Source: a bacterium (GTDB lineage Bacteria; Patescibacteriota; Patescibacteriia; UBA9934; GWF2-40-263). From it: a stretch of 64,000 nt of DNA. Position 1 is the first letter of the stretch, and each line of letters begins with the position of its first letter. Location of the stretch: the NCBI GenBank assembly GCA_020057555.1, contig JAGVFR010000026.1, positions 22,631 to 86,630 of the forward strand. The letters run 5' to 3'. Shown in pieces: positions 8,049 through 58,573 of the stretch. Position numbers and translations under genes: made by a program. The notes beneath the pieces are model-generated. The model was not told where the DNA came from and searched no databases. It worked only from the letters and a program-made list of their open reading frames with translations.

Positions 8049-8084
8049 TAGTAGAAAAGTAGCAAAGTAGTAGAGTAGTAAAGG
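8049..8084 (+). repeat. GA-rich AGTAG-type leader repeat directly upstream of the queA start
   Basis: GTAGAAAAGTAGCAAAGTAGTAGAGTAGTAAAGGG; family also found at 16514, 18168, 27951, 34119. Confidence 0.6.
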
Positions 8085-8089
8085 GAATT

Positions 8090-9181
8090 ATGACACAAAT
8101 TACAGAATTCAATTATCATCTTCCAAGAGAGTTAATCGCACAATGCTCTGTCCAGCCTCGCGACCAATCACGGCTCATGGTTTTGGATAAACAAACAGGG
8201 AAGTTGAACCACAAGAAATTTTTTGAGATTGTTGATGAGTTGAAAACAGGTGATGTACTTGTATTTAATGATACAAAAGTTTTTAGAGCCCGGCTCAAGA
8301 CGCAAAATGGAATTGAGATATTTTTGTTGCGTGCGCGGGAAGACGATATTTGGGAAGTTTTGGCGCGTCCGGGAAAGAAGTTGCAGGTTGGACAAACACT
8401 TTGTATTGAACATGAAACAGAAAAACTTTGTGGAGAAGTGATGTCAAAACAATCAGACGGAACTGTTTTGATAAAATTTGATCGCGTACCAAATGACGTA
8501 ATCGCGTTTGCAAATATATACGGAGAGATTCCTATTCCTCCTTATGTGAAAAATATACCGGAGCGATTGGAAGATTATCAAACGATCTATGCAAAAGAGA
8601 CAGGTTCTGTTGCGGCGCCAACAGCCGGTTTTCACTTCACAGAAGATCTTATGGAAGAATTAAAATCAAAAGGCGTGCAATTCGAATTTGTAACACTTCA
8701 CGTTGGAATTGGAACTTTTCGTCCAATGAAAACAGAAACGATCGAGGAACATGAAATGCACAGCGAGTTTGTTTCTGTCTCAAAAGAGACAGCAGATCGG
8801 ATCAATCAAGCAAAAAAAGATGAGCGACGCGTGATCGCTGTTGGAACGACAACAGTTCGTACACTTGAAGGAGTCGCAAATTATCCCCTGAGCGAAGGTC
8901 AATTAGGCCTTCGACAGGCTCAGGCAATAATTGACCGAAGTCGAATGGGTAATTTTTATCTTCCAGATGGTTTTACAGGCGACGTTAATCTATTTATCAA
9001 ACCAGGCTTTGATTTCAAAATAATTGATGGGCTTATAACGAATTTTCATTTACCAAAATCAACATTACTGGTTTTGGTTTCGGCTTTTGCTGGAAGAGAA
9101 AATGTTTTGCGCGCGTATGAAGAAGCAGTTGCGCAACAGTATCGTTTTTTTTCCTTTGGCGACGCGATGTTTATTGCTTGA
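8090..9181 (+). CDS. queA: S-adenosylmethionine:tRNA ribosyltransferase-isomerase
   Basis: N-terminal FNYHLPRELIAQ and overall QueA layout; carries an in-frame insertion of the 25-nt dispersed repeat at 8908-8932. Confidence 0.9.
   Translation: MTQITEFNYHLPRELIAQCSVQPRDQSRLMVLDKQTGKLNHKKFFEIVDELKTGDVLVFNDTKVFRARLKTQNGIEIFLLRAREDDIWEVLARPGKKLQVGQTLCIEHETEKLCGEVMSKQSDGTVLIKFDRVPNDVIAFANIYGEIPIPPYVKNIPERLEDYQTIYAKETGSVAAPTAGFHFTEDLMEELKSKGVQFEFVTLHVGIGTFRPMKTETIEEHEMHSEFVSVSKETADRINQAKKDERRVIAVGTTTVRTLEGVANYPLSEGQLGLRQAQAIIDRSRMGNFYLPDGFTGDVNLFIKPGFDFKIIDGLITNFHLPKSTLLVLVSAFAGRENVLRAYEEAVAQQYRFFSFGDAMFIA
8908..8932 (+). repeat. dispersed 25-nt repeat CCTTCGACAGGCTCAGGCAATAATT (copy inside queA coding sequence)
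   Basis: Exact 25-mer also at 57313-57337; near-identical copies at 34817-34841 and 20178-20196; flanked here by the 9-bp inverted repeat GGTCAATTA/TAATTGACC. Confidence 0.8.
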
Positions 9182-15271: not shown

Positions 15272-16534
15272 ATGAAAAATTCTATTGAATCTATTCACGC
15301 TGACGAGATATTAGATTCACGCGGAAATCCAACTGTTCAAGTTTCGGTTTTGTTAAAAGATGGAACTGTTGGTTTAGCATCTGTGCCAAGCGGTGCTTCA
15401 ACAGGGTCACACGAAGCGCTCGAACTGCGAGACAATGATAAAAAAAGATACAAAGGAAAAGGTGTGTTGAAAGCAGTTCACAATGTCAATACGACGATTG
15501 CAAAAGCTCTGTACGGAATTGATGTTTCAAAACAACGACAGATCGATCAGATCATGATTGATCTTGATGGTACAAAAAACAAAAGTCGTCTTGGTGCAAA
15601 CGCAATTTTAGGTGTGTCGCTCGCGTGCGCTCATGTTGCGGCAAAAGCAAAAAAGATGCCGCTCTATTCGTATCTGCGTTTTGTGTTTGATATTTCACAT
15701 AAAAAATATCGTTTACCGATTCCAACAATGAACGTGCTAAACGGCGGTGCGCATGCAGGATGGATTTTGGATTTTCAGGAATTTATGATTGTTCCGGTTC
15801 AACATTCGTTTAAAGAGCGAATGCGTTGTGGCGCGGAAGTTTTTTATTCACTTGGAGAACTTTTGAAAAAGAAAGGTTTTACTACATTGAAAGGAGATGA
15901 GGGTGGCTACGCGGTGAAGCTGAAAAAAAATGAAGAAGCTTTGAAATTTATAATGAAAGCGATCAAGCAAGCTGGATATCAAGCTGGAAAAAATGTTTTT
16001 CTTGCGATCGATCCGGCAGTTTCAGAACTTTATAATAAAAAAGACAATCGTTATCATCTAAAAGTTGACAATAAGACTTTGACACAAAAGCAAGTGATTG
16101 CTTTGTGGAAGAGTTGGATTAAAAAATATCCGATTATTTCTTTGGAAGATGGATTGGATCAAGATGATTGGAATGGTTGGGTTGAAATGACAAAACAGAT
16201 CGGAAAGAAAGTCGCGCTTGTTGGCGATGATTTTTTTGTGACAGATGTTGAACGATTGCAAAAAGGAATAAAACTTGGCGCAGGAAATGCAATTTTAATC
16301 AAAGTGAATCAGATTGGAACTTTATCTGAAGCAATGGATGCGATTTTGCTTGCCCAACAGTTCGGGTATAAGGTTTCTGTCTCTCATCGTTCTGGAGAAA
16401 CAGAAGACACGACAATCGCTGATTTGGCTGTTGCTGTGAATGCGGATTTTATCAAAACAGGTTCTTTGTCGCGTTCAGAACGGCTTGCGAAATATAATAG
16501 GTTGTTGGAAATAGAGGAGGAAGTAGCAAAGTAG
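15272..16534 (+). CDS. eno: enolase
   Basis: ILDSRGNPTVQV and SGETED motifs. Confidence 0.95.
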   Translation: MKNSIESIHADEILDSRGNPTVQVSVLLKDGTVGLASVPSGASTGSHEALELRDNDKKRYKGKGVLKAVHNVNTTIAKALYGIDVSKQRQIDQIMIDLDGTKNKSRLGANAILGVSLACAHVAAKAKKMPLYSYLRFVFDISHKKYRLPIPTMNVLNGGAHAGWILDFQEFMIVPVQHSFKERMRCGAEVFYSLGELLKKKGFTTLKGDEGGYAVKLKKNEEALKFIMKAIKQAGYQAGKNVFLAIDPAVSELYNKKDNRYHLKVDNKTLTQKQVIALWKSWIKKYPIISLEDGLDQDDWNGWVEMTKQIGKKVALVGDDFFVTDVERLQKGIKLGAGNAILIKVNQIGTLSEAMDAILLAQQFGYKVSVSHRSGETEDTTIADLAVAVNADFIKTGSLSRSERLAKYNRLLEIEEEVAK

Positions 16535-16565
16535 AAAGGGGAAAGGGAGAAAAGGGGTGAGTGGT
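16514..16565 (+). repeat. GA-rich AGTAG / AAGGGGTGAGTGG repeat overlapping eno stop and forming the gpmI SD region
   Basis: AGTAGCAAAGTAGAAAGGGGAAAGGGAGAAAAGGGGTGAGTGG; related to 18168-18215 and reverse-complementary to the CT-rich arms at 18216-18272 and 37141-37189. Confidence 0.6.
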
Positions 16566-18167: not shown

Positions 18168-18272
18168 AAAAGGGGGTGAGGGGGATAGGTGGAAAGTGTG
18201 AAAGGGAAGCACCCTTACCACTCGCCCCTTTTCTCCCTTACTCCCTTTCCAGTTTCCACTCACCTCATTTAA
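18168..18272. repeat. long imperfect inverted repeat (GA-rich arm + CT-rich arm) between gpmI and nth
   Basis: AAGGGGGTGAGGGGGATAGGTGGAAAGTGTGAAAGGGAAG ... CTTACCACTCGCCCCTTTTCTCCCTTACTCCCTTTCCAGTTTCCACTCACCTC; the CT-rich arm abuts the nth ATG. Confidence 0.6.
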
Positions 18273-18275
18273 TTT

Positions 18276-18992
18276 ATGCAATCGTCAATTTCGACAGTTT
18301 TCACTATTCTCTCAAAAGAGTTTCCAAATTCTGGAGCAATGGAAATTGGAAATCCATATCAAAATCTTGTTGCTGTAATATTGTCGGCACGCACGCGAGA
18401 TGAACAAGTTTTAAGATTGTTTCCAAAATTTTTGAATGCGTTTCCAACAATAAACAAACTTGCGAAATCAACTCCAAAGCGAATTGAGGGATATATTCGT
18501 TCGATTGGCATGTATAGACAAAAAGCGAAAAATTTACATAAGATGGCAGTTGAGGTTGAAAAAAGGTTTAACGGGAAGATTCCAAGCACAATGGAGGAAT
18601 TGATTATACTTCCTGGTGTTGGTCGAAAAACGGCTTCGGTTATTCTTGTAACATCATTTTCAAAACCAGCAATCGCTGTTGATACACATGTACATCGAGT
18701 TACAAACCGTCTTGTATGGGTGAAAACAAACACGCCAGAAAAAACTGAAAAGGCATTGTTGAAAATCATTCCAATATCTTCGCAACTGACAGTGAATCGA
18801 GTGTTTGTGAAATTTGGAAGATACATTTGCATCCCGGGGAAACCACGATGTTGGGCATGTCCAATACAAAAATATTGCGAATACAAAAATAAAAATTTAA
18901 TCAAACCAAAAAATTCCGAAATGATTTTGGTTGATATTGAGCGGAGAGAAAATGAACTTGAACTTCTTAGAAAGTCTGCTTGCAAAGTATGA
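18276..18992 (+). CDS. nth: endonuclease III
   Basis: HhH-GPD motif LPGVGRKTA and 4Fe-4S cluster C-x6-C-x2-C-x5-C. Confidence 0.9.
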   Translation: MQSSISTVFTILSKEFPNSGAMEIGNPYQNLVAVILSARTRDEQVLRLFPKFLNAFPTINKLAKSTPKRIEGYIRSIGMYRQKAKNLHKMAVEVEKRFNGKIPSTMEELIILPGVGRKTASVILVTSFSKPAIAVDTHVHRVTNRLVWVKTNTPEKTEKALLKIIPISSQLTVNRVFVKFGRYICIPGKPRCWACPIQKYCEYKNKNLIKPKNSEMILVDIERRENELELLRKSACKV

Positions 18993-19495: not shown

Positions 19496-20566
19496 ATGAA
19501 AGCAATCATTCTTGCAGGAGGAGTTGGCACAAGACTTTGGCCAATGTCTCGCCAGAAAAAACCAAAACAATTTTTTGAAATTGTAAATGATGTTCCTCTA
19601 ATAAAAGAAACTTACAATCGTCTTCTTAGATTGTTGCCGTCTGAAAAAATATTTTTTTCCATTTCTCCTTCGTTTGACAATCTTTTACACGAGATACTTC
19701 CAGAAATTTCAAACGATCATATTTTGATTGAACCTGAAAAACGAGACACCGGTCCTGCAATGGGTTACGTTGCCGCGTTAATGGAACTTTATGATTCTGA
19801 TGAACCGATAGTATTTATCCCATCCGATCATAATATTAAAGATGAAGAAATGTTTTTGCGTACACTTGAGGTAGGAGACATGCTTGTAAGAAAAACAGGA
19901 AAACTTCTTGACATAGCTGTGACTCCGACTTTTCCAAGCACTGTTCTTGGATACACTAGGATTGGTGAATTGTATGACACAATAAACGACGTCAAGGTTT
20001 ATCGTTTCGCTGGTCACACAGAAAAACCTCCATACGAAGTTGCAAAACAATATCTTGAAAAAGGATCATATTTGTGGCATGCAAATTATTACATGTGGAC
20101 ACCGCGCAAGTTTATGGAAGCGTTTGAAACATACGCGCCAGAGATTGGAAAAGTGTTGAGAGAAATTCAACATACAACCCTTCGACAGGCTCAGGGTATA
20201 GATGTTTTCTTCAGATCGCTTCCCAAAATATCTTTTGATTATTCTGTTACAGAAAAAATGGATCCACAAGAAGTTCTAATAATGAAAGGAAATTTTGGTT
20301 GGAGCGATATTGGTGCATGGGATACTTTGTGCGATCATCTTTCAGATAAAGGACAAAATGTTACAAAAGGAAAGTGTTTAATGATAGATACAAAAGGATC
20401 TTTGGTGTATGCGCCTGAAAATAAACTTGTTGCAGTATTAGGCATGGAAGATGTTATCATTGTTGATACTGGTGACGCCTTGCTTGTGTGTCCAAAATCA
20501 CGCGCACAAGAAGTTAAAAAAATTGTAGAAAAACTTCTGGAAAGTGGAGACGATAAACTAATATAA
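19496..20566 (+). CDS. sugar-1-phosphate nucleotidyltransferase (mannose-1-phosphate guanylyltransferase-like)
   Basis: MKAIILAGGVGTRLWPMSR motif; carries an in-frame copy of the dispersed repeat (encodes TLRQAQGI) at 20178-20196. Confidence 0.8.
   Translation: MKAIILAGGVGTRLWPMSRQKKPKQFFEIVNDVPLIKETYNRLLRLLPSEKIFFSISPSFDNLLHEILPEISNDHILIEPEKRDTGPAMGYVAALMELYDSDEPIVFIPSDHNIKDEEMFLRTLEVGDMLVRKTGKLLDIAVTPTFPSTVLGYTRIGELYDTINDVKVYRFAGHTEKPPYEVAKQYLEKGSYLWHANYYMWTPRKFMEAFETYAPEIGKVLREIQHTTLRQAQGIDVFFRSLPKISFDYSVTEKMDPQEVLIMKGNFGWSDIGAWDTLCDHLSDKGQNVTKGKCLMIDTKGSLVYAPENKLVAVLGMEDVIIVDTGDALLVCPKSRAQEVKKIVEKLLESGDDKLI
20178..20196 (+). repeat. dispersed repeat copy (CCCTTCGACAGGCTCAGGG) inside the nucleotidyltransferase CDS
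   Basis: Matches the first 17 nt of the 25-nt repeat core. Confidence 0.7.
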
Positions 20567-27246: not shown

Positions 27247-27861
27247 TTATACTGGTCTAAATTGTCGGATAACTGCGCGAACTACGCCCTGAATAATACA
27301 ATCTTTTACGTATATAGGATTCATTGTGCTGTTTGCAGGTTGAAGACGTATACGCCTTTGCTCTCGATAAAATCGTTTCAATGTTGCATAAGCATTATCA
27401 AGCAAAGCAACAACCACTTCGCCGTTTTTTGGTGATGGATTGCGTTCAATGACAACATAATCACCATCTAGAATTCCGTCTTCAATCATTGAACGTCCTT
27501 TTACACGAAGAACAAATGAATTTGCTCCATCAAGCACGAAAGTTGCTGGCACAGCCATTGTTTCTCGATCTTCAACAGCCTCGATTGGCTCTCCTGCCGT
27601 GATCAAACCAAGCATTGGCAGAAGAACTGAAGGTTCATCCTGTTCCGACGATACAAGTTCGATTGATCTTGCTTCTCCTTCATCACCGACTGTTATTTCT
27701 CCTTTTTCAACAAGAGTTTGAATATGAGTATAAACAGTGGCAGGGGATGAAAGTCCAAAGTGTTCACCGATCTCTCTGTATGATGGTGCGTAACCTCGAT
27801 TTTTTATGTGTGTACGAATGTGGGCGAGAATTTCTGCTTGTTTTTTTGTAAGAGGAGGCAT
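27247..27861 (-). CDS. lexA: LexA repressor
   Basis: wHTH N-terminus and S24 peptidase domain with Ser (GRSM) / Lys catalytic context. Confidence 0.9.
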   Translation of the reverse strand: MPPLTKKQAEILAHIRTHIKNRGYAPSYREIGEHFGLSSPATVYTHIQTLVEKGEITVGDEGEARSIELVSSEQDEPSVLLPMLGLITAGEPIEAVEDRETMAVPATFVLDGANSFVLRVKGRSMIEDGILDGDYVVIERNPSPKNGEVVVALLDNAYATLKRFYREQRRIRLQPANSTMNPIYVKDCIIQGVVRAVIRQFRPV

Positions 27862-27890
27862 ATTTTGAAAGTTTTAGTTGTTCGTCTTAT

Positions 27891-27910
27891 GTTCGTATGA
27901 TATATCGAAC
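27891..27910. promoter_or_regulatory. palindrome GTTCGTATGATATATCGAAC 30 nt upstream of the lexA start (candidate autoregulatory LexA box); CGAAC-N6-CGAAC direct repeat follows
   Basis: GTTCG...CGAAC ends with AT-rich centre; position typical of an autoregulatory operator. Confidence 0.45.
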
Positions 27911-27950
27911 AAAAAACGAACGCAAGAGGCAGATTGTGGATAAGTATGGG

Positions 27951-28066
27951 AGAGTAGATAAGTAGTAGAGTAGCAAAGTAGAAAAGGGAATTGATTGGTG
28001 ATTTTACTGCAAATTTTTCAACCCTCTGCTACTATGCTACTCTTCTACTCTGCTACTTTTTTATCC
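27951..28066. repeat. AGTAG-family inverted repeat pair (GA-rich arm, CT-rich arm) in the lexA/metK divergent intergenic region
   Basis: GATAAGTAGTAGAGTAGCAAAGTAGAAAAGGG ... CTCTGCTACTATGCTACTCTTCTACTCTGCTACTTTTTT; CT arm ends 5 nt before the metK ATG. Confidence 0.6.
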
Positions 28067-33618: not shown

Positions 33619-34118
33619 CTTATTTTTGAAATAGTATAGATCACATCTCCTTGGAGTGTTTTTACAGTAACAGCGTCGCCGACAGTTTTGTTCATAAGTG
33701 CTGATCCGAGTGGTGAAACATTTGAGATTCTTCCGTGTACAGGATTTGCTTCATGCTGACCAACGATTTCGAATGTCTTTTTATTTTTTTCAACTTCAAC
33801 AACAACTGTTGAACCAAGCTGAACTGTTTGTACTTGGCTTTTTTCAATGAGTACAGAGCGTTTGATTTGTTCTTCAAGTTTCATTACACGATTGTGTAAT
33901 CGTCGCATTCGTCCTTTTGCTTCTTGATATTCTGCATTTTCTGAAAAATCTCCAAACTCGGCTGTACGTTTAACATCCTCAATTGCTTGGGGGAGTTGAC
34001 GCGATTTTATATCGGCAAGTTCGTCTTTGATTTTTTGAAGGCCGACCGGTGTTATGTGCAAAGGCCCCTCATCTTGGTGGATTTTTAGTCGTTCTGATTT
34101 TCGAATAGGTAGACGCAT
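33615..34118 (-). CDS. greA: transcription elongation factor GreA
   Basis: GDFSENAEYQEAKGRMRRL motif and GreA C-terminal FKBP-like domain. Confidence 0.9.
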   Translation of the reverse strand: MRLPIRKSERLKIHQDEGPLHITPVGLQKIKDELADIKSRQLPQAIEDVKRTAEFGDFSENAEYQEAKGRMRRLHNRVMKLEEQIKRSVLIEKSQVQTVQLGSTVVVEVEKNKKTFEIVGQHEANPVHGRISNVSPLGSALMNKTVGDAVTVKTLQGDVIYTISKIS

Positions 34119-34165
34119 AGGTGGAGATAGTAGTTAGTAGCAGAGTAGCATAGTAGCGGAAGGTT
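34119..34165. repeat. AGTAG-family repeat abutting the greA start (CT-rich in gene sense)
   Basis: GGTGGAGATAGTAGTTAGTAGCAGAGTAGCATAGTAGCGGAAGG. Confidence 0.6.
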
Positions 34166-34219
34166 GAAAAATTAAACAAAAAACCACCCAGCTTTACGAG
34201 GAGGGTGGCAGATGAGAGA

Positions 34220-34807
34220 TCAAGCAATGCCTGGCAAAGGATCGCGTTTTTCAACTCCAGAGCATGCGACCAGAAGATCCCAGGAAGGACAGTCGCGCGT
34301 TGTGCACCAATCTCGGTCTGATGAAATTCTTTCTCCACATTCTGGACATTGCCAGCATGAGGAAGTCTTTTTAGTGCTTTGCTTTTTTCGAGCGCGAGCA
34401 ACAGTGAGAATGTACAAGTACTCGATCCACCAGAGCGTTAGTTCAAGACTCTCTTGGTGCGCGATTGAGTTTCGCGTTCGAAACACATGTAGACTCTCTT
34501 TTGGTTGCACGACTTTCAGTTCGTGCGGGTCCATTAGATCGAAGAGCGCTCGTGGAATATTGCATTTGCGCAATACTCCAACAAGTGGCGATAAGCGACG
34601 GCGTAGTGGTTGTGGAAGATCTTGCAGAGTGAAGGTAGCACGAATCGTGTGCAGATGTGCCCATGACACATTGACCCGATCAGGAACGATGATCAACCGT
34701 TGTGGAGGTTTTTGGTGGTCCTCCTCAATATCAGGTCCAACGGCTGACTGTTGCGAAGCACCATGAAAAAAGTCTTCCATGTTTCCCTCCGAAGATAAAC
34801 ATATCAT
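34220..34807 (-). CDS. hypothetical protein with C-terminal zinc-ribbon (orphan)
   Basis: Minus ORF (alternative start 34780); CWQCPECG...C..RDC motif; the overlapping plus-strand ORF is Ser/Arg/Cys-rich junk; regional GC about 50%. Confidence 0.45.
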   Translation of the reverse strand: MICLSSEGNMEDFFHGASQQSAVGPDIEEDHQKPPQRLIIVPDRVNVSWAHLHTIRATFTLQDLPQPLRRRLSPLVGVLRKCNIPRALFDLMDPHELKVVQPKESLHVFRTRNSIAHQESLELTLWWIEYLYILTVARARKKQSTKKTSSCWQCPECGERISSDRDWCTTRDCPSWDLLVACSGVEKRDPLPGIA

Positions 34808-34816
34808 TGTAGTTTG

Positions 34817-34841
34817 CCTTCGACAAGCTCAGGCAATAATT
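34817..34841 (+). repeat. dispersed 25-nt repeat copy (CCTTCGACAAGCTCAGGCAATAATT) in the divergent promoter region
   Basis: 1 mismatch to the 8908 copy; flanked by CATTGTAG/CTATAATG inverted repeat. Confidence 0.8.
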
Positions 34842-34854
34842 CTATAATGTCTTC

Positions 34855-36252
34855 ATGCTTTCTCGAATTACTGAAAAAACTTTCTATCAATACATCAAAT
34901 GCCCGAATTGGGTTTACTTTGATGTGCATGCATTTGAAAAACGAGTTCGTGATCCTCTTATGGATCGCTTGATTGATGATGGGCTTCTTGATGAAAAACA
35001 GCGTGAGATCATTTCTGATCGCACTGACATGGTAGAAGTTACATCTGAAGATCCTGATGAAGCGTTTCGACAAACACTTGAGTTTATGCGCGAAGGTCGT
35101 CAAACGATTTTTCACTCTGTACTCATTGATAAAAATTTTGTTGGACATCCTGATGTGCTTGAAAAAGTTGAAGGGCGTTCGAAGCTTGGTGATTTTTATT
35201 ATGTTGCGGTTGATCTTAAACGTTCACGTTTTTTACGCGACGATCATAAATTTCAAGGATGTTTTTATGCTGAACTTCTTGAACGAATTCAAGATGTGAA
35301 GCCTGTTCAAGGTTACATCATCACACCTGACAAAATTGTTTTGCCATATTTGATTAGTGAGTTTGAAGGAGAATTCACTCTTACACTTTCAGAGATTGAA
35401 AAGATTATTGTTGGCACACAGCCAGTTCATTTTGTAACTTCAGGATGTAAACAATCACCATGGTTCAAAGAATGTCGTGGTGAATCCGAAACGTGCGATG
35501 ATTTGTCGTTATTGAATCGAGTTTGGCGTCAAGAAGTTGCTCGTTTGTTAAAAGCAGGAGTCAACACAATATCGGAACTTTCGCTAAAATCTTTGGTTGA
35601 TCTTGAGCGTTTGGCTCCTGATGTTAGTTCATCTCGGCTTGAGATTATGCGCGATCAAGCAATTGCGATAAAGGAGCATCGGCATATTTTTCGTGGAACG
35701 GTTGAACTTCCTGTTGCAAAGATCGAAGTTTTTTTTGATATTGAAAGTGATCCGCTTCGAGATTTTGATTATCTTTTTGGAGTGCTTGTAGTTGAAAATC
35801 GCAGTGAATCGTATCAATCGTTTTTTGCGGTAACTCCAGCGCAAGAAAAAGACGCGTGGGATGAGTTTGTCGCTTTTGTTGAAGGACATTTGGACGCGCC
35901 GATTTATCACTTTGGTCAGTTTGAAGTTGAAGTTGTTAATCGTTTTAGCGCGCGATATGGGATTTCTGCGATTGCGCGAGAAGCGCTTGAACGTAACATG
36001 ATTGATTTGCTTGAAGTGATTCGTCCTGCTGTAATTTTTCCTTTGTCATTTTATTCGCTCAAAGATATTGCCGCTTATTTGGGTTTTGAGTGGCGTGCTT
36101 CTGACGCATCTGGTGCGAATTCTGTTTTGTGGTTTGAAGAATGGTTGAAGAAAAAAAATCAAAAGTTGTTGCAAAAAATTCTTGAGTATAATGAAGATGA
36201 CGTGCGCGCAACTGCTCATGTAAAAAAATGGTTATGTGAAAATGCAATATGA
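34855..36252 (+). CDS. RecB-family (PD-(D/E)XK) nuclease with C-terminal RNase-H-like domain, TM0106-type
   Basis: N-terminal Cys-containing nuclease domain (YQYIKCPNWVYFD); C-terminal EVFFDIESDPL exonuclease-like motif. Confidence 0.6.
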   Translation: MLSRITEKTFYQYIKCPNWVYFDVHAFEKRVRDPLMDRLIDDGLLDEKQREIISDRTDMVEVTSEDPDEAFRQTLEFMREGRQTIFHSVLIDKNFVGHPDVLEKVEGRSKLGDFYYVAVDLKRSRFLRDDHKFQGCFYAELLERIQDVKPVQGYIITPDKIVLPYLISEFEGEFTLTLSEIEKIIVGTQPVHFVTSGCKQSPWFKECRGESETCDDLSLLNRVWRQEVARLLKAGVNTISELSLKSLVDLERLAPDVSSSRLEIMRDQAIAIKEHRHIFRGTVELPVAKIEVFFDIESDPLRDFDYLFGVLVVENRSESYQSFFAVTPAQEKDAWDEFVAFVEGHLDAPIYHFGQFEVEVVNRFSARYGISAIAREALERNMIDLLEVIRPAVIFPLSFYSLKDIAAYLGFEWRASDASGANSVLWFEEWLKKKNQKLLQKILEYNEDDVRATAHVKKWLCENAI

Positions 36253-37139
36253 AAACAAGTTGGTTTCGAAATTGTGCGGAGTTAATTATCTTGATCGCTA
36301 TCATTGCCACGGTTTACACACAACGCGTGGGGATTTCGCAGTGGTTTCGAGAAATGATGGAGCCGTCTGTGCCAGAGGCAGTGGAGTTTGAAAAAATAAC
36401 AGAGGAAAAGGAAGAAGGTAGTCGCGGGCTTCAGCCCGCGCAAGCGCCAGTCATCCCGAGTGCCGTCGATGGATCTGAAGAAAAAATATTGCCTGAACCT
36501 GTTGAAGGCAGTATAGATGATGTAGTTGTCACTTCGACAAGCTCAGTGGATAAAATTTTGCCTGTTGAAATCAATCTCGCTGTTCCTTTTACATCTCAAG
36601 CTCCGCACGCGAATTGGGATTTACCATATAAAGAAACATGCGAAGAAGCATCGCTCTATATGGTTGATGTTTATTATAAAGGAGTAAAAGCGGGGAAGAT
36701 TGCGGCTGATACTGCGGACGAGGAGATTAAAAAAATTATAGAATTTGAAAAAGAAATTTTTGGATATTATGAAGACACAACCGCAGAACAAGTTGGAATT
36801 CTTGCGGAAATGATGTATGGTCACGAAAAAATTGAACTGATCGAAAATCCAACTGTTGAACAAATTAAAAAACATGTTGCTGAAGGACATCCGGTTATTG
36901 TTCCTGCGGCAGGACGAGAACTTGGTAATCCGAATTTCACAGCGCCTGGTCCGATATATCACATGTTAGTGATTCGCGGATACACAAAAGATGGTAAATT
37001 CATCACAAATGATCCGGGCACAAAAAACGGCGAAGCATATGTTTACGATTTTGACACAGTTATGAACGCGATGCATGATTGGAACAATGGTGACGAGATC
37101 ACGGAAGGAAAAAAGGTAGTACTAATTGTTTATCCATAA
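36249..37139 (+). CDS. peptidase C39-like domain protein (YvpB-like), membrane-anchored
   Basis: N-terminal TM; FTSQAPHANWDLPYKETCEEAS Cys-containing block resembling C39-like domains. Confidence 0.45.
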   Translation: MKTSWFRNCAELIILIAIIATVYTQRVGISQWFREMMEPSVPEAVEFEKITEEKEEGSRGLQPAQAPVIPSAVDGSEEKILPEPVEGSIDDVVVTSTSSVDKILPVEINLAVPFTSQAPHANWDLPYKETCEEASLYMVDVYYKGVKAGKIAADTADEEIKKIIEFEKEIFGYYEDTTAEQVGILAEMMYGHEKIELIENPTVEQIKKHVAEGHPVIVPAAGRELGNPNFTAPGPIYHMLVIRGYTKDGKFITNDPGTKNGEAYVYDFDTVMNAMHDWNNGDEITEGKKVVLIVYP

Positions 37140-37140
37140 T

Positions 37141-37189
37141 TCCAATCTTCCTTTCCCTTACCACTCGCCCCTTATCCCCCTTTCTCTAT
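37141..37189 (+). repeat. CT-rich arm (CTTACCACTCGCCCCTT family) abutting the start of the gene at 37190
   Basis: TCCAATCTTCCTTTCCCTTACCACTCGCCCCTTATCCCCCTTTCTCTAT then ATG; shares CTTACCACTCGCCCCTT with 18216-18232. Confidence 0.6.
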
Positions 37190-37663
37190 ATGGACTACAT
37201 TCTTGGTGGATCACTTGGTGCAATTGTCGCTTTCATTTTCGCAATTCCCGCGATCGTTCTTGAGATCAAGCAAAAAGGTGAAGCGACTGATGCTCCGCTA
37301 ATTGTTGATGCGCGAAAAATTTTCGGTCGTCGTCTAAAAAAGCAAGAAGCATTTTTGGTTGGCTTGCTCATCCATATTATTTTTGGATTCTTGTTTGGAT
37401 TGATTTACGTTTTATTTGTTTTGCAAGGATGGCTGTTTGTCACGCACGCGCCATACACATTTTTGTCTTTAATTGTTTATGCGTTATTAAGTTGGATTGT
37501 CGCAGGAGTTGTTATTTATCCCGCGCTTGGTATGGGATTGTTTGCACGTCGTGAAGGAAAACACGTTTGGATTGAAACTCTCACGTCGCATTTGATTCTT
37601 GGAATTTGTTTGTGGCTTCTTGTTCAATATTATCAGCCACAGTTTTTTATTATTCCAATTTAA
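37190..37663 (+). CDS. hypothetical integral membrane protein (4 TM)
   Basis: Hydrophobic helices throughout; 157 aa. Confidence 0.5.
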   Translation: MDYILGGSLGAIVAFIFAIPAIVLEIKQKGEATDAPLIVDARKIFGRRLKKQEAFLVGLLIHIIFGFLFGLIYVLFVLQGWLFVTHAPYTFLSLIVYALLSWIVAGVVIYPALGMGLFARREGKHVWIETLTSHLILGICLWLLVQYYQPQFFIIPI

Positions 37664-37846: not shown

Positions 37847-39040
37847 GTGAATACTCTCCGCACAATTTCAGTTGCAGAATTTATCAAGCTTGTAAACGAA
37901 ACTCTGCGACTTATTCCGTCGCAGGAGTTTGTTGTTGAAGGTGAAATTTCCGATTTTCGAATTGCGCAAGATAAGTGGATCAGCTTTGATTTGAAAGATG
38001 AAAATGGAGAAGCAGTGCTTAAGTGTTTCATGACAACTTGGCAATTGCGTGTACAGATAGAAGATGGAATGCGTGTGCAAGTCCGTGGAACTCCAAAAGT
38101 TTATGAGCGATACGGGCAGTTCAAAATGAATGTTCAGGAAGTCGAGCCTGTTGGAGAAGGAGCTCTTAAACGCGCGTACGAACTTTTGAAAAAGAAACTT
38201 GAGCAAGAAGGTTTGTTTGATGTTTCGCGCAAACGTTCTTTGCCGCGTTTTCCAAAACGAATCGGTCTTATCACTTCTCGCGATGCGGCCGCGTACGGCG
38301 ACTTTCTTCAAATTCTAAACAACCGTTGGGGAGGCGTTTCAGTTTTTCATTTGAATGTTCATGTTCAAGGCAGGGAAGCAGTATCAGATTTACTCGGAGC
38401 GTTTGAGTATTTCAATGAGTTGTCTGATACAGAGCGTCCCGATGTCTTGGTTCTTACTCGTGGTGGTGGAGGGTTGGAAGATTTACACGCATTTAACGAC
38501 GAGAGTGTTGCGCGCGCAGTATTCGGTTCAAAAATTCCAGTTGTGTGTGGAGTCGGACATGAACGTGACGAATCGCTTTGTGATTTTGTTGCTGATGTTC
38601 GCGCGTCAACTCCATCAAACGCGGCAGAAAGAGTTGTTCCAAACAGAGAAGAAGTTCGTTATGAAATTGAGATGATGTGTCAACATTCTGAAGAGCGTTT
38701 GCTTAACCAGTTGAGTCAGAAATCATTGATTGTTGAACGCGCAACAAATGTGATAGGGCGAATCATTAGTCAACAAAATGAACGGCTGAAGCATTTGCGT
38801 CAGAGATTTTTTGACGTGACTCATGTTTGGGCGCCAGCGCTTTTTGATCAAATAGATGGATTTGAAAAGATTTTGCGACAACTTGATCCAAAACGTGTGC
38901 TTGCTCGCGGCTACGGAATTGTTACGATAAACGGCCAAGTCTTAAAGGATGTTTCATCACTTGAAATCGGAGCTTCTGTTGGAGTACAATTGGCAAAAGG
39001 CTCATTTGAATCTTATGTCACAAAAAAAGAAAACAATTGA
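37847..39040 (+). CDS. xseA: exodeoxyribonuclease VII large subunit
   Basis: OB-fold N-terminus plus ExoVII large-subunit catalytic domain. Confidence 0.9.
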   Translation: MNTLRTISVAEFIKLVNETLRLIPSQEFVVEGEISDFRIAQDKWISFDLKDENGEAVLKCFMTTWQLRVQIEDGMRVQVRGTPKVYERYGQFKMNVQEVEPVGEGALKRAYELLKKKLEQEGLFDVSRKRSLPRFPKRIGLITSRDAAAYGDFLQILNNRWGGVSVFHLNVHVQGREAVSDLLGAFEYFNELSDTERPDVLVLTRGGGGLEDLHAFNDESVARAVFGSKIPVVCGVGHERDESLCDFVADVRASTPSNAAERVVPNREEVRYEIEMMCQHSEERLLNQLSQKSLIVERATNVIGRIISQQNERLKHLRQRFFDVTHVWAPALFDQIDGFEKILRQLDPKRVLARGYGIVTINGQVLKDVSSLEIGASVGVQLAKGSFESYVTKKENN

Positions 39041-39221
39041 TTTTGCGTCATCTTTTGAAGAGTTGGAAAAGATTACACAATGGTTTGATTCTGAAGAGAA
39101 TGTTGATGTTGAAGTTGGTTTGAAAAAGTTTGAGCGCGGGCTTGAACTCGCGAGCGAGCTCAAAAAGAAATTGTCTGAAGTTGAAAATAAAGTCGAAGAG
39201 ATAAAGAAAAAATTTACTTAA
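39015..39221 (+). CDS. xseB: exodeoxyribonuclease VII small subunit
   Basis: MSQKKKTIDFASSFEELEKITQWFDSEE...KKFERGLELASELKKKL matches XseB; overlaps the xseA 3' end by 26 nt. Confidence 0.8.
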   Translation: MSQKKKTIDFASSFEELEKITQWFDSEENVDVEVGLKKFERGLELASELKKKLSEVENKVEEIKKKFT

Positions 39222-39222
39222 T

Positions 39223-39576
39223 ATGTCTTATCTAATTTTTCGCTGGATTATCAATGCGATCGCGCTTTTGCTTGTTGCGTATTTGGTTCCGGGTTTTGTT
39301 GTTGTTAGTTTGTACAACGCGCTGATAGCCGCATTAGTGCTTGGACTTGTGAACGCGCTCATTCGTCCTCTGTTGTTCATCTTGACGCTTCCGATAACGA
39401 TTCTTACACTTGGACTTTTCACTTTTGTCATCAACGCGCTCATGATTTGGTTTGTCTCAACAGTTGTTGATGGATTTGATGTCGCAGGTTTCACTCCGGC
39501 TTTGCTCGCGGCAATTATTTTGTGGGTGATAAGTATGGTGACGAATTGGATGATAGATCAAGCAAAGGAAACGTAA
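39223..39576 (+). CDS. DUF360 / phage-holin-4-like small membrane protein (YvlD-like)
   Basis: 117 aa, 4 TM helices, family-typical layout. Confidence 0.5.
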   Translation: MSYLIFRWIINAIALLLVAYLVPGFVVVSLYNALIAALVLGLVNALIRPLLFILTLPITILTLGLFTFVINALMIWFVSTVVDGFDVAGFTPALLAAIILWVISMVTNWMIDQAKET

Positions 39577-39687: not shown

Positions 39688-40431
39688 TTGAAACGGTTTG
39701 CCAACTATTTTATGCTACACAAAAATTCTCTCGAACCTTCAACGCTCGTCATTTCAGTTGGCGGATCACTTGTTGTTCCAAACGGCGGAATCGACACAGT
39801 GTTTCTCAAAGATTTCAAAAAATTAATTTCCAATCACATCAAAAGTGGTTGGCGTTTTGTAATTGTTGTTGGTGGGGGTGGAACCGCTCGGCAGTATCAA
39901 TCCGCGGCTCGCGCGATTGGAAAGATCACACCGGAAGATATTGATTGGATCGGTATTCATTCAACAAGATTGAACGGCCATCTAATGCGTACAATTTTTC
40001 GAGACATCGCGCATCCTGTTATGATCAAAGACCCAACTCGTCCTTTATCAAAATGGACCGGACCTGTTTTAATAGCGGCCGGATGGAAACCCGGATGGTC
40101 AACCGATTATGTTGCAACGCGTTTGGCAAAACGTTTCAAAGCAAAAGTCGTTGTGAATTTGTCCAACGTTGATTATGTGTATGACAAAGATCCAAACAAA
40201 CATTCTGATGCAACAGCGATTTGTGAAATGAGTTGGAAGGATTTTCGAAAAATAGTCGGCAACAAATGGGATCCCGGAATGAATGTTCCGTTTGATCCAA
40301 TCGCGTCACGCTTAGCGCATCAATCCGGAATTTCTGTGGCGCTTCTTAATGGAAAAAACATCAAAAATTTGAATGACTTTTTGTCTGGCCGAAAGTTTAT
40401 TGGAAGTGTAATCGGCGGTCACAGCGCTTGA
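39688..40431 (+). CDS. pyrH: UMP kinase, archaeal type (amino-acid kinase fold)
   Basis: VGGSLVVP, VVGGGGTARQY and NVDYVYDKDPNKHSDA blocks align with archaeal-type UMPK rather than bacterial PyrH. Confidence 0.75.
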   Translation: MKRFANYFMLHKNSLEPSTLVISVGGSLVVPNGGIDTVFLKDFKKLISNHIKSGWRFVIVVGGGGTARQYQSAARAIGKITPEDIDWIGIHSTRLNGHLMRTIFRDIAHPVMIKDPTRPLSKWTGPVLIAAGWKPGWSTDYVATRLAKRFKAKVVVNLSNVDYVYDKDPNKHSDATAICEMSWKDFRKIVGNKWDPGMNVPFDPIASRLAHQSGISVALLNGKNIKNLNDFLSGRKFIGSVIGGHSA

Positions 40432-55838: not shown

Positions 55839-56186
55839 AGTCTTGCGACCGCGCGGTCGTTGGACATTACATTATGATTCCGTACTTATAAAGATGAAAA
55901 ACAAGCAGGTTGCCATTTTTAATTTTTTATGGAGTATGGAACCATAATGTAATGTCCACATTCCTCTCACAGGTCTTCATTGCAAGCATGGAGCAATGGA
56001 AAACTGTGATTGGAGGGCGACGTTGGAAAGATATCCTTCGTCGCCCAAGAGTTTGCCTTCTCGGCTGGAGGCTCTGCTTCCTCTTGGCTCACCGTTTTAG
56101 GAAGGTGACTCCTTTTTGTCGCGTGTTTCAGATTGTAGTGGAATGTGTTAACTCACTTTGCCCTCCTAAATGTTTGGTTTTTTTGG

Positions 56187-57197
56187 CTACGAGAGCATGG
56201 CCTGGAGCTTGAGCTCGGCCATACGGATCACGCCAGGAACCGTCCAGTTCTTGATCGCACGGACGTCCGCGGCGGTCAGACCAGAGTTGCGAATTTTGAT
56301 AGCCGCGCGACCGAGTTGACGGTACTCGTCCTTGCTCACGCCCGGGACGATCTTGCCCTGAACGCGGCGTGGCGGACGAACCAGACCTAGACCGCATGCG
56401 AGCAAACTTCCGTCGCGCAGGGTTTCGACGTGCGAGCGAGTTTCGGCGATTCTTGCGTCAACGCGTTCTTCGGCCTCGCGCTGAAGCCGTGCTTCCTCGG
56501 TCGCTCTCTCGTCCGCGAACATATTCTCGATTGCCGCCATTGCCTCGGGCACGGTCTGCGATCCGAGCGGCAGAACGGTCTGTGCGCACTTGGGGCAGAA
56601 CGACTTCTGAAGGAGACCATGAACGGTCACCTCCTCGAGCCTCTTGACCCCGATAGCGCGCATGATTGTGCTGAACACGACCGCGACCCTTGCCTCGTTC
56701 ATCGGAACGAGTCGCAGACACTGTCCGAACTTTCCCTGACAGACCACGTGGTCCACGCCGTCCTTCGCAATGACGAGTCCCGGGGTGAACCTGACCTCGG
56801 GCTCGAGAACGGGCTCGGGCGCTGGAGCGGGTGCGGCGGGAGCCTTCTTGGTCTCGGCCTTGTGGACCTTGACCTTCGCCGGCTTCGGTGTCTCGACCTT
56901 CGGAGCCGGGGACGGGTTGGCCTCGGTCTTGGGCGAGACGATCTCCTTGGCCATGATTTCGACAGCCTCGATCGAGGAGCAATCCCTCCAGTTCTGGCCC
57001 GTGACCTCGATGATGTGCATGGCGCGACCGAGCTCGACGTGGGATGCGAGGAAGTTGATCGAGCCCTCGAAGTGACGCTCAACCACACGGCCGAGCTCTT
57101 CGAGTTCGCCAGGGAGACCGGGGCGGGAGTCGTCCTGCGGGATGATCTGAAGTCCGGGAGCCATCTGCGCGACCATGCGTAACCTCCAAAAAAGCAT
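56187..57197 (-). CDS. hypothetical protein on high-GC island (orphan, Pro/Ala/Lys-rich linker)
   Basis: Minus-frame codon positions sampled at 56761-56820: GC1 75%, GC2 40%, GC3 85%; GC switches to host-like at the stop codon; other overlapping ORFs are GC artefacts. Confidence 0.6.
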   Translation of the reverse strand: MLFWRLRMVAQMAPGLQIIPQDDSRPGLPGELEELGRVVERHFEGSINFLASHVELGRAMHIIEVTGQNWRDCSSIEAVEIMAKEIVSPKTEANPSPAPKVETPKPAKVKVHKAETKKAPAAPAPAPEPVLEPEVRFTPGLVIAKDGVDHVVCQGKFGQCLRLVPMNEARVAVVFSTIMRAIGVKRLEEVTVHGLLQKSFCPKCAQTVLPLGSQTVPEAMAAIENMFADERATEEARLQREAEERVDARIAETRSHVETLRDGSLLACGLGLVRPPRRVQGKIVPGVSKDEYRQLGRAAIKIRNSGLTAADVRAIKNWTVPGVIRMAELKLQAMLS

Positions 57198-57312
57198 GTG
57201 TCCTGGGTCCCGAACCTACACCACGTAGGAACGGATCAATTTATAGAACCTATCGGTCCTACGACCTTAGCAGTTTGGAAATTGTTATACCTTGAGCGAA
57301 GGAAAATTACTG

Positions 57313-57337
57313 CCTTCGACAGGCTCAGGCAATAATT
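57313..57337 (+). repeat. dispersed 25-nt repeat copy between the two high-GC genes
   Basis: Exact match to 8908-8932; flanked by AAATTACTG/CAATAATTT. Confidence 0.8.
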
Positions 57338-57463
57338 TGCCGGAGTCGGAGGGTTAGATTCAATTTCTAAACTATTAAGATCGTTCCGGGTGGCGTGTTC
57401 AGGGAAAGAAATCCCTTTACACACCACCCGGAAGATATAGAGCGGAGAGAGCGGAAAGAACTA

Positions 57464-58003
57464 CTAGCCGTTGGCGACCTTGCGGGCCTTGCCCTTGACG
57501 GTCACGATCGGCGTCTCGACGGCGGCGGGAGCCTCGGCGGGCGTGGAGACCGGAGCCGGTGTCACGGCGACCGCGGCCTTGAGCTCGGCCACAACCTGCG
57601 GGCCGACCTGCTCACCGATCGGGGTCGAGGCGAGAGCAGGCTTGGCGGGTGCGGAAGCGGCGGGCTTGGGCGTGAGCTTCGGCGCGGGCTTCTCGGACTT
57701 GGACTTCGGGAAGTAGGACATCGTGTTGACCATGTCCTTGAAGTCCAGGAGCGGTGCGAGGGCCGAGTTCTGCCCCATGCCGTGCTCGATGTTGTCGATG
57801 GCCTTCGTGAGAAGGGCCTTTCCGACGTCTTCGATGCAGCGCATGGTGTAGTACTCGGTGCCGACGTAGTCGTCGCGCTTCTCCGGGTCGAGGCCGAGCA
57901 CCTCGCACGCCTTCGCGAAGATCTTGTCGCGCAACTCCCTTTCGAAGATGCGTCCGTAGAGCGGGGAGGGATCGGTCGAGGGGGCCTGGAAGCTGGTCTT
58001 CAT
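57464..58003 (-). CDS. hypothetical protein on high-GC island (orphan, Pro/Ala/Lys-rich tail)
   Basis: GC3 20/20 in a sampled 60-nt stretch; N-terminal globular part then KPAPKLTPKPAASAPAKPALAST linker and a Lys-rich C-terminus. Confidence 0.6.
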   Translation of the reverse strand: MKTSFQAPSTDPSPLYGRIFERELRDKIFAKACEVLGLDPEKRDDYVGTEYYTMRCIEDVGKALLTKAIDNIEHGMGQNSALAPLLDFKDMVNTMSYFPKSKSEKPAPKLTPKPAASAPAKPALASTPIGEQVGPQVVAELKAAVAVTPAPVSTPAEAPAAVETPIVTVKGKARKVANG

Positions 58004-58573
58004 TGAAATTCTCCTTTTCGATGGCCTGCCTCCAGCCGAACCTGACCCCTGTGGTCAAATCCGCTTTCAGCTCGATGACGGCAAATGTTGTCACCATTGA
58101 GCTGAATCGGATTTTCCCAGAAATACGGAGGTAAAGTGTGACCCATTGACCTGCCCGAAGGCTGGTGTAGATCGTGAGTCTCTTGCGTATGAATTCAGTC
58201 AGCCTAGGCCGAATGAACACATTTGAGACTCTCTGCCAATGTCGTCTTGTAAGACTCGATTGGACAGCTTTACTCTCTCCTCCGTGTTTCTGGGTCGGTT
58301 TTTAACAAAAAACCGGTTGTCGTATATATCTGATCTTTTTGGCAAGAGTCAGACGTACACAACAACCGGTTCTTTTATTCAAAGAATGGCTATTGACTAC
58401 CTTTATACCGTGGGTAGTGCACGGACTCTCTCCCAAAAGTCCTATTTGTAAGAATCATCTTAACGGTCATACTATATCATATTCTGTCAAAACTGTCAAG
58501 ACCCGTATGTCGGTGAGGTTAGAATTTTAGCTAAAATTAGACAAAAGCTACTGTCAGGATTTTTTAGACTTAT

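Follow-up and report, generated by a model that had tools for sequence, protein, structure and literature searches.

The stretch of DNA analysed here, a 64-kb window of about 40% G+C, has its close protein relatives in Candidatus Uhrbacteria (Patescibacteria, or candidate phyla radiation, CPR) and carries three adjacent genes between 34220 and 37139: a TM0106-family nuclease, a membrane-anchored Peptidase_C39_2 protein encoded directly after it, and a small zinc-ribbon protein, hereafter the orphan, encoded upstream on the opposite strand. The original prediction had taken the nuclease and the peptidase for a two-gene unit resembling defence or competence modules. The three ORFs (open reading frames) that it named lie at the coordinates given there, and its other features were found as well. 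The comparisons described below do not bear this out: the pair opens a nine-gene string that continues to pyrH, rplJ and rplL, a further gene intervenes in many relatives, and both genes display native codon usage and a low ratio of nonsynonymous to synonymous substitution rates (dN/dS). With moderate confidence, we read the region as the beginning of a core gene string that is found across the clade and starts with TM0106, not as a self-contained nuclease-peptidase system.

The loci compared were obtained by scanning species-representative genomes, which returned 79 loci, 78 of them from Uhrbacteria and close allies and one on a Bdellovibrionales contig; the scan was seeded with peptide patterns from Uhrbacteria sequences and is therefore biased to that clade. 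Downstream gene counts refer to the 72 loci with at least 1.5 kb of sequence 3' of the nuclease, orphan counts to the 71 with enough upstream sequence, the nuclease-peptidase spacing to 65 loci, and the survey of −10 boxes and Shine-Dalgarno motifs before the nuclease to 75 sequences (the window plus 74 loci). The genes of the string, all co-directional, follow one another in the order TM0106, C39_2, DUF2938, XseA, XseB, holin_4_2-like, PyrH, L10 and L7/L12, and in the window they are placed as follows.

34855-36252, plus strand: TM0106-family (TIGR03491 / COG2251) two-nuclease protein, 465 aa (profile matches, invariant residues)
36249-37139, plus strand: membrane-anchored Peptidase_C39_2 protein (papain-like), 296 aa (PF13529, invariant residues, hydrophobic segment)
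37190-37663, plus strand: DUF2938 polytopic membrane protein (Pfam, synteny)
37847-39221, plus strand: xseA and xseB, the large and small subunits of exonuclease VII, with xseB at about 39015-39221 (Pfam labels of orthologues in loci L001 and L003, synteny)
39223-39576, plus strand: holin_4_2-like gene (orthologue labels from the same two loci, synteny)
39688-40431, plus strand: pyrH, then rplJ and rplL (orthologue labels from the same two loci, synteny)

The C39_2 gene stands directly after the nuclease in 68 of the 72 loci, DUF2938 and XseA are each present in 60 of the 72, and PyrH, L10 and L12 still belong to the string in loci whose TM0106 identity ranges from 95% to 44%. Upstream of the nuclease, GreA, a HAD hydrolase and other genes are conserved in the closest relatives only. 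The neighbourhood is thus conserved in relatives; the possibility that these genes are never co-localised elsewhere, on which the original prediction could have foundered, is not what the loci display. The spacing between nuclease and peptidase is variable, with a median of 310 nt from the nuclease stop to the peptidase ATG and a gap above 200 nt in 37 of the 65 loci, and the 4-nt overlap seen in the window is confined to a few lineages. Most of the gaps above 200 nt hold a plus-strand open reading frame (ORF) for a membrane-anchored protein with ten cysteines (10-Cys), usually of about 100-135 aa with longer variants to about 175 aa, and a profile of the family recovers 39 ORFs of this kind across the loci. 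This gene lies directly before C39_2 in about half of the Uhrbacteria loci (among L006-L077; for example, L009 7402-7749). Its product, which follows the pattern C-x5-GG-x-WN-x-CGSACR...CIExCVEYCEC...CPxGxxC...GVC, is unmatched in Pfam; it could serve as a substrate or an inhibitor, or be a secreted peptide rich in disulfides. As about half of the loci have a gene between nuclease and peptidase, the 4-nt overlap appears derived, not ancestral. The 10-Cys gene is absent from the window according to the family hidden Markov model (HMM); tblastn matches to it at 34599-34712 (plus strand, E 0.13-9) were rejected as chance matches of Cys-rich composition, the HMM giving no match. The string in the window would be long, vertically inherited and co-directional, with TM0106 in the promoter-proximal position and the 10-Cys secreted protein presumably lost in this lineage.

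Searches for described systems gave little to set beside this synteny. No PADLOC-DB 2.0 system model was matched by the three proteins, the nuclease returning generic Cas4 models only and the orphan and the peptidase none. No cas genes occur among the Pfam-labelled neighbours of the orthologous loci, a tandem-repeat scan of the 64 kb found no CRISPR array, and the conserved string contains no ABC transporter. The earlier statement that nothing here matches a described system therefore holds, PADLOC having yielded Cas4 domain matches alone. As the string is conserved to pyrH and rplJ, a gene often separates the pair, and no PADLOC system is matched, we read the adjacency of nuclease and peptidase as conserved gene order within a housekeeping string of mixed functions, not as a defence module.

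The nuclease is matched over its full length by TIGR03491 (NCBIfam, TM0106 family RecB-like putative nuclease), with residues 6-460 aligned to model positions 2-462 and a score of 331.3 bits against a cut-off of 97.45 (E 1e-98), and PF13482 (RNase_H_2) matches its C-terminal half (E 4.3e-40). Residues from about 1 to 215 correspond to a Cas4-like PD-(D/E)xK domain and residues from about 290 to 460 to a DEDDy 3'-5' exonuclease domain. Across 16 sequences of 61-100% identity, the PD-(D/E)xK residues P99-D100 and D120-x-K122, the Q134-x3-Y138 motif, one N-terminal cysteine (C16) and three C-terminal ones (C198, C207 and C214), and the complete DEDDy set (D295, E297, D384 and Y445-x3-D449) are all invariant. 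The full-length TIGR03491 match, PF13482 and the invariant motifs together confirm the proposed fusion of a PD-(D/E)XK Cas4/RecB-like nuclease with an RNase-H-like exonuclease. Two Cas4 models match residues 84-207 below threshold (TIGR00372, 37.7 bits vs 65; PF01930, 17.5 vs 22.7). In the AlphaFold2 (AF2) model, the C-terminal domain has a predicted local distance difference test score (pLDDT) of about 70-97, and this exonuclease half resembles TREX1-like, DnaQ and PolB-exo domains (Foldseek probability 0.96-0.99). The nuclease is under strong constraint (dN/dS 0.05-0.07), and the codon score of 0.26 for nuclease and peptidase, against a window mean of 0.22 ± 0.05, denotes native usage. The enzyme would be cytoplasmic, combining a Cas4-like domain, probably with an Fe-S cluster, and a DEDDy 3'-5' exonuclease, so that one polypeptide could trim DNA ends of both polarities (5' and 3'); the enzyme may serve DNA turnover, repair or recombination, and exonuclease VII, predicted to be co-transcribed with it, is a plausible partner in this. 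The COG2251/PF13482 group has been described computationally as the fusion of a predicted 3'-5' exonuclease with a DUF83 PD-(D/E)xK domain (PMC3985635; PMC3424549), and the survey of the RNase H-like superfamily by Majorek et al. (2014; PMC3985635), in which COG2251 is family F.13, noted tandem AAA domains. Our literature searches found no experimental work on the TM0106/COG2251 family and nothing relevant on TM0106 nucleases or an Uhrbacteria nuclease, and a sequence search of the PDB gave no match for the orphan, the nuclease or the peptidase.

The second product of the string comprises an N-terminal hydrophobic helix (a single segment), a variable acidic linker and a catalytic domain from about residue 110. 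PF13529 matches residues 110-256 with 46.9 bits against a gathering cut-off of 24, and 16 sequences that are 51-86% identical to the protein of the window all keep Q117, C131, H238, N254 and D255. It was the sole family matched in a full Pfam scan, which gave no match to the classic bacteriocin-processing C39 model and detected no cell-wall-binding domain, and the PHROG 10051 'endolysin' family matches with an E value of 6e-8. The peptidase start overlaps the nuclease stop by 4 nt (ATGA); the PF13529 match, the hydrophobic segment and this overlap all agree with what had been proposed for a membrane-anchored, C39-like peptidase. It would act as a separate product outside the cytoplasm, most likely as a cell-wall (endolysin-type) peptidase, and would have in common with the nuclease only the transcript.

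The orphan is set apart from these two proteins by its orientation, its distribution and its rate of evolution. Its gene and associated signals, all on the minus strand, are as follows.

34220-34780, minus strand: orphan coding sequence, 186 aa, unnamed family (start at Met10 of a 195-codon ORF open from 34807)
34785-34790, minus strand: Shine-Dalgarno sequence GGAGGG, 4 nt before the ATG (CCTCC at the same place in most orphan-bearing loci)
34176-34209, minus strand: probable intrinsic terminator, hairpin CCACCC...GGGTGG followed by a U run (RNA fold of 34150-34235, minus strand)

The start is most likely Met10 (34780), as indicated by the starts of homologues, the GGAGGG sequence and a public gene call of 186 aa. 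The terminator, a 7-bp G+C-rich stem followed by UUUUUU, was missed by the pattern scan as its loop exceeds 8 nt, and the whole 86-nt segment folds with z = −1.4. The protein appears cytoplasmic; an alpha/beta domain at its N terminus and a long helix precede a C-terminal four-Cys zinc ribbon that ends in W-x-C-x2-C...C-x4-C-x-S-W; W143, C145, C148, C159 and C164 are invariant in 45 sequences, and the LPxPL, WW and S-W motifs are nearly so. The AF2 model is confident (pLDDT 88; predicted template modelling score, pTM, 0.80) and places short strands around the four cysteines, and some family members weakly match several Zn-binding Pfam models. The spacing of the Cys-pair knuckles is that of a zinc ribbon or treble clef, and metal binding is predicted. 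Thus, the zinc ribbon in the original account of the orphan (about 190 aa, 34220-34807) gains support beyond what was claimed for it, and the start must be moved to 34780. No known DNA-binding domain (helix-turn-helix, HTH; WYL; ribbon-helix-helix) was recognised in it.

Relatives of the orphan number seven close homologues and 41 cluster representatives in a library of 1.84 billion proteins, with lengths of 147-223 aa. Its dN/dS of 0.23-0.32 is about 4-5 times that of its neighbours, and changes are over-represented at third codon positions; the orphan is a real protein that evolves fast. Its G+C content lies 0-9 points above that of the host locus in 26 of 26 genomes and tracks the host, which points to amino-acid composition (rich in Arg, Pro, Trp and Cys) and not to recent transfer. 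The family occurs in 26 of the 71 loci, always upstream of the nuclease on the opposite strand; in 25 of these 26 it is directly upstream, 0-335 nt from the nuclease start, and in L020 it is 1.3 kb upstream. As the wide orphan alignment was too divergent for a metagenome search, a narrow alignment was used, which added two loci from close relatives with the same divergent arrangement. Loci without the orphan contain no substitute upstream gene: their neighbours are heterogeneous, and a relaxed HMM search gave no match.

Between the two divergent genes, the following elements were found.

34820-34848, plus strand: promoter of the nuclease string, TCGACA-17-TATAAT (11 of 12 consensus positions; −10 ends 6 nt before the ATG)
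34839-34866, minus strand: candidate orphan promoter, TCGAGA-16-TAGAAT (9 of 12 positions, weak; −10 overlaps the plus-strand −10)
34816-34840, plus strand: repeat copy GCCTTCGACAAGCTCAGGCAATAAT, which forms the 3' arm of a palindromic element (about 75 nt) and supplies the −35-like hexamer

Promoter-like sites are overall no more frequent in the window than in shuffled sequence, and the single match at 34820-34848 is weak; its support comes from the conservation of the −10 across loci. In 55 of the 75 sequences, the nuclease ATG is preceded at a distance of 6-8 nt by a TATAAT or TATACT box, mostly TGn-extended; a Shine-Dalgarno-like motif occurs before the nuclease in one of the 75. Since the distance from −10 to ATG is conserved and a Shine-Dalgarno motif is lacking, the nuclease, as first gene of the string, is probably translated from a leaderless mRNA. 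In several relatives, the spacer between the orphan and nuclease start codons is just 41-48 nt long, with a palindromic TGCTATAATAGCA inside it, which leaves the two promoters no room to lie apart; we infer a back-to-back bidirectional promoter for orphan and nuclease. Bidirectional promoters with symmetric −10 elements have been documented in bacteria (Warman et al., bioRxiv 10.1101/2020.01.31.928960; PMC12825309). The repeat and the TATAAT that had been placed in an intergenic region at 34808-34854 are both present, and with the orphan starting at Met10 the region itself extends from 34781 to 34854. SOS control of the nuclease was rejected, as GTTCG-N10-CGAAC was found upstream of lexA and nowhere else in the window. 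The lexA gene (27247-27861, minus strand) is preceded by nested GTTCG...CGAAC inverted repeats at 27880-27927, including GTTCGTATGATATATCGAAC, which constitute a candidate SOS box for this lineage.

Transcription of the orphan would run away from the nuclease, starting at a promoter with a −10 region that overlaps the −10 of the nuclease promoter. The position of the orphan next to the nuclease has been kept despite replacement of the left flank, and the two share a promoter region; the hypothesis that appeals most is therefore that the orphan is linked to the nuclease through regulation or physical contact. Our preference, held weakly, is that the orphan regulates the shared promoter or binds the nuclease. 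The stronger proposal, that it founds a new-fold zinc-ribbon family that controls TM0106 through the overlapping promoters or by direct binding as a guard or inhibitor, we consider unlikely. If true, it would offer the first functional handle on the widespread, uncharacterised TM0106/COG2251 family.

The repeat within the spacer is not specific to this cluster. Allowing up to two mismatches, CTTCGACAAGCTCAG has six copies in the window, where 0.1 are expected from shuffled sequence, and it belongs to a palindromic element of about 75 nt with the structure CCTGAGCGAAGG-N9-12-GCCTTCGACARGCTCAGGCAATAA-...-CCGAAGTCGAAKGG. The element was located at 8880-8951, 57285-57356, 20179-20200, 34816-34840 and 36527-36562 in the window, and at 5925-6000 of L004 and 1350-1515 of L090 in relatives. 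Full-length copies lie inside the QueA ORF and in the 60%-G+C island described below; partial copies lie in a ManC-like ORF, in the orphan-nuclease spacer and in the peptidase linker. The last of these is a further feature of the cluster.

36527-36562 (to about 3 nt), plus strand: 36-nt in-frame insertion with the repeat core CTTCGACAAGCTCAG in the peptidase linker (DNA alignment)

This insertion is absent from the two closest species-level relatives. In the spacer, close relatives have zero, one (the window), two (L004) or four (L090) copies, those of L090 forming four perfect 40-nt tandem units, and the relative with none retains a TGn-extended −10. The comparison of that relative with the window suggests that insertion of the repeat replaced an extended −10 by a −35/−10 promoter. 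The repeat is best described as a dispersed element that also lies in frame within genes and supplies the −35 hexamer by happenstance. The in-frame insertions are reminiscent of the in-frame palindromic elements of Rickettsia and illustrate, on a modest scale, how a repeat can reshape promoters and proteins in a CPR genome.

Several points weigh against the reading of the region as the head of a core string with an orphan tied to its leading gene. The conservation of the string is clade-limited and could reflect slow rearrangement rather than selection, although the left flank did rearrange, and the pattern-seeded sample of loci says little on other CPR classes. Distant members of the nuclease family (25-29% identity) occur on proteobacterial plasmids in neighbourhoods of a defence-like kind. 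The AF2 model is poor for the N-terminal half of the nuclease, with pLDDT below 50 for most of residues 1-213, so that the fold search is meaningful for the exonuclease domain only; the PD-(D/E)xK and Fe-S assignment of this half, made from motifs, is probable. The leaderless start, the extent of the operon and the orphan promoter are predictions. As for the orphan, its family has a median isoelectric point (pI) of 7.2 (range 4.9-9.8), which is atypical of DNA-binding regulators, inspection by eye of all orphan-bearing spacers picked out no common operator, and its absence from two-thirds of the loci implies that the nuclease does not need it.

Among the alternatives, the one that concerns us most is that the orphan is functionally unrelated to the nuclease, a lineage-specific gene kept by inheritance and by a compact shared promoter region. 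It agrees with the absence of the orphan from 45 of the 71 loci, where the upstream neighbours vary, with the variable pI and the lack of an outstanding operator, and with a G+C content that tracks each host genome, suggestive of long residence and not of a mobile partner. It sits less well with a divergent position upstream of TM0106 in 28 of 28 places, retained even where GreA and the rest of the left flank are replaced, and with the finding that no locus has a copy at another place in the 6 kb around the nuclease; on balance, we hold this explanation to be possible, if doubtful. That there is no orphan protein at all, 34220-34807 being instead a pseudogene in decay or a structured RNA of high G+C content, on both strands of which long ORFs arose by accident, has a negligible chance of being right. 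The local G+C content of about 50% against 39% in the flanks, a 184-codon ORF on the opposite strand and a codon score of −0.003, outside the range of the window genes, would fit such an origin. They are outweighed by an ORF conserved with its invariant Cys and Trp residues in the 41 cluster representatives, by the third-position excess and the dN/dS, by the confident AF2 model, and by the presence of a Shine-Dalgarno sequence and a terminator. The G+C excess over the locus in all 26 genomes fits the protein's Arg/Pro/Trp/Cys-rich composition, and Rfam gave no match in the whole window at the gathering threshold and none even at E 10 in 34050-34900.

Two further explanations give the string itself another meaning. 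A dedicated anti-phage or anti-plasmid system, with the nuclease and the membrane peptidase as effectors and the orphan as a small sensor or regulator, would draw on the Cas4-like domain, the plasmid-borne relatives and the patchy, fast-evolving orphan; we judge it very improbable, given that no PADLOC system model is matched, that nuclease and peptidase are syntenic and highly conserved in almost every clade locus among pyrH, rplJ and xseAB, with native codons and the low dN/dS noted above, that another gene often separates the two, and that none of the inspected plasmid relatives has a C39_2 neighbour. Somewhat less remote, and still improbable, is a unit for DNA uptake and nucleotide salvage, in which the envelope proteins would aid entry or surface remodelling, TM0106 and exonuclease VII would degrade the DNA, and PyrH would feed the pools. 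Two DNA exonuclease systems, three envelope proteins and a UMP kinase are indeed co-linear across the clade, the leaderless, promoter-proximal placement of the nuclease is conserved, and such a unit would fit the limited nucleotide biosynthesis of a CPR organism, CPR bacteria being generally dependent on salvage. However, the Pfam labels of the orthologous neighbourhoods include no ComEC, ComEA, DprA or pilus genes, the presence of ribosomal protein genes in the same line-up indicates that the string mixes unrelated functions, and the C39_2 domain matches an endolysin family, with nothing to tie it to DNA transport.

Read as a core gene string, the locus yields nothing categorically new; its one new item is the orphan protein. 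TM0106/COG2251 nucleases are widespread and uncharacterised, and the short form found here is a highly conserved core gene, which suggests housekeeping DNA-end processing in organisms with very reduced repair sets. A false lead is removed, in that the adjacency of nuclease and peptidase is not a new defence module. The orphan adds a small family with a confident predicted fold, no solved relative and a positional tie to the nuclease promoter.

Other features of the window were recorded in passing. A 2-kb island of 60% G+C at 56100-58100, in a genome of 40% G+C, contains two minus-strand ORFs (56187-57197 and 57464-58003; G+C at third codon positions 0.76 and 0.91) with a full-length palindromic element between them. 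Neither ORF has a Pfam or PHROG match, and 56187-57197 also lacks a match in phage genomes and the PDB; a foreign origin or a chimeric assembly may account for the island. Short stretches in which an 8-nt unit recurs (AGTAGNNN, reading CTACTNNN on the opposite strand) occur at 8050-8087, 16522-16543, 27953-27990 and 34136-34161, with a reverse-complement form at 28024-28060, and lie just upstream of several start codons, including those of GreA, QueA and the gene divergent from lexA. A 32-nt pyrimidine-rich repeat, CCCTTACCACTCGCCCCTTWTCYCCCTTWCTC, is present at 37155-37186 and 18212-18243 in copies that are 91% identical, just upstream of the DUF2938 start at 37190 and of an ORF start at 18276, with no Shine-Dalgarno sequence evident. 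A tRNA scan of the 64 kb found no tRNA gene.

Compared with known systems, the nuclease is closest to its own family, sharing the two-domain build of a DUF83/Cas4-like PD-(D/E)xK domain and a PF13482 exonuclease (PMC3985635). It differs in being the short, stand-alone form of 465 aa, whereas many members reach about 1,100 aa with extra C-terminal domains. The TM0106 module was found on 74 plasmids, mostly proteobacterial, at 25-29% identity, and in all seven plasmid relatives inspected (L083-L089) it is N-terminal in proteins of about 1,100 aa with about 650 extra residues; the neighbours there include WYL regulators, Abi, dGTPase, ThiF/multiubiquitin, TrlF ATPase and SbcCD-like genes, and this long form may be a defence or plasmid-maintenance nuclease. 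With Cas4, the nuclease shares the PD-(D/E)xK and QxxxY motifs and one N-terminal and three C-terminal cysteines placed as in Fe-S ligands. It is distinguished by scores under both curated cut-offs, by a Cys spacing of x8/x6 where that of Cas4 is x2/x5, and by surroundings without a CRISPR array in the 64 kb or cas families among orthologous neighbours.

The peptidase resembles the PF13529 domains of phage endolysins and bacterial C39-like proteins in its Pfam match, its Gln/Cys/His/Asp set and its PHROG 10051 match, and PF13529 is reportedly named in several studies of phage lytic proteins and endolysins. Unlike those endolysins, it is the product of a chromosomal core gene, carries an acidic linker behind its membrane anchor, and gave no sign of a cell-wall-binding domain; unlike the classic C39 bacteriocin-processing peptidase, it matches PF13529 only and its string has no ABC exporter. 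The predicted divergent promoter is comparable to the bidirectional promoters with symmetric −10 elements, in that divergent genes lie 41-48 nt apart around a TGCTATAATAGCA core in relatives and the plus- and minus-strand −10 hexamers overlap in the window. A small divergent gene directly upstream of TM0106 is also found in the WYL-TM0106 pairs of alphaproteobacterial plasmids (Sphingobium pRSMS1, Rhizobium p3), but that arrangement occurs in two of the seven plasmids inspected, and the orphan has neither a WYL or HTH domain nor detectable similarity to the WYL proteins. From known defence systems, finally, the locus departs in its distribution: in place of a patchy, island-like spread, the string stands in 60-68 of the 72 loci beside pyrH and ribosomal protein genes.

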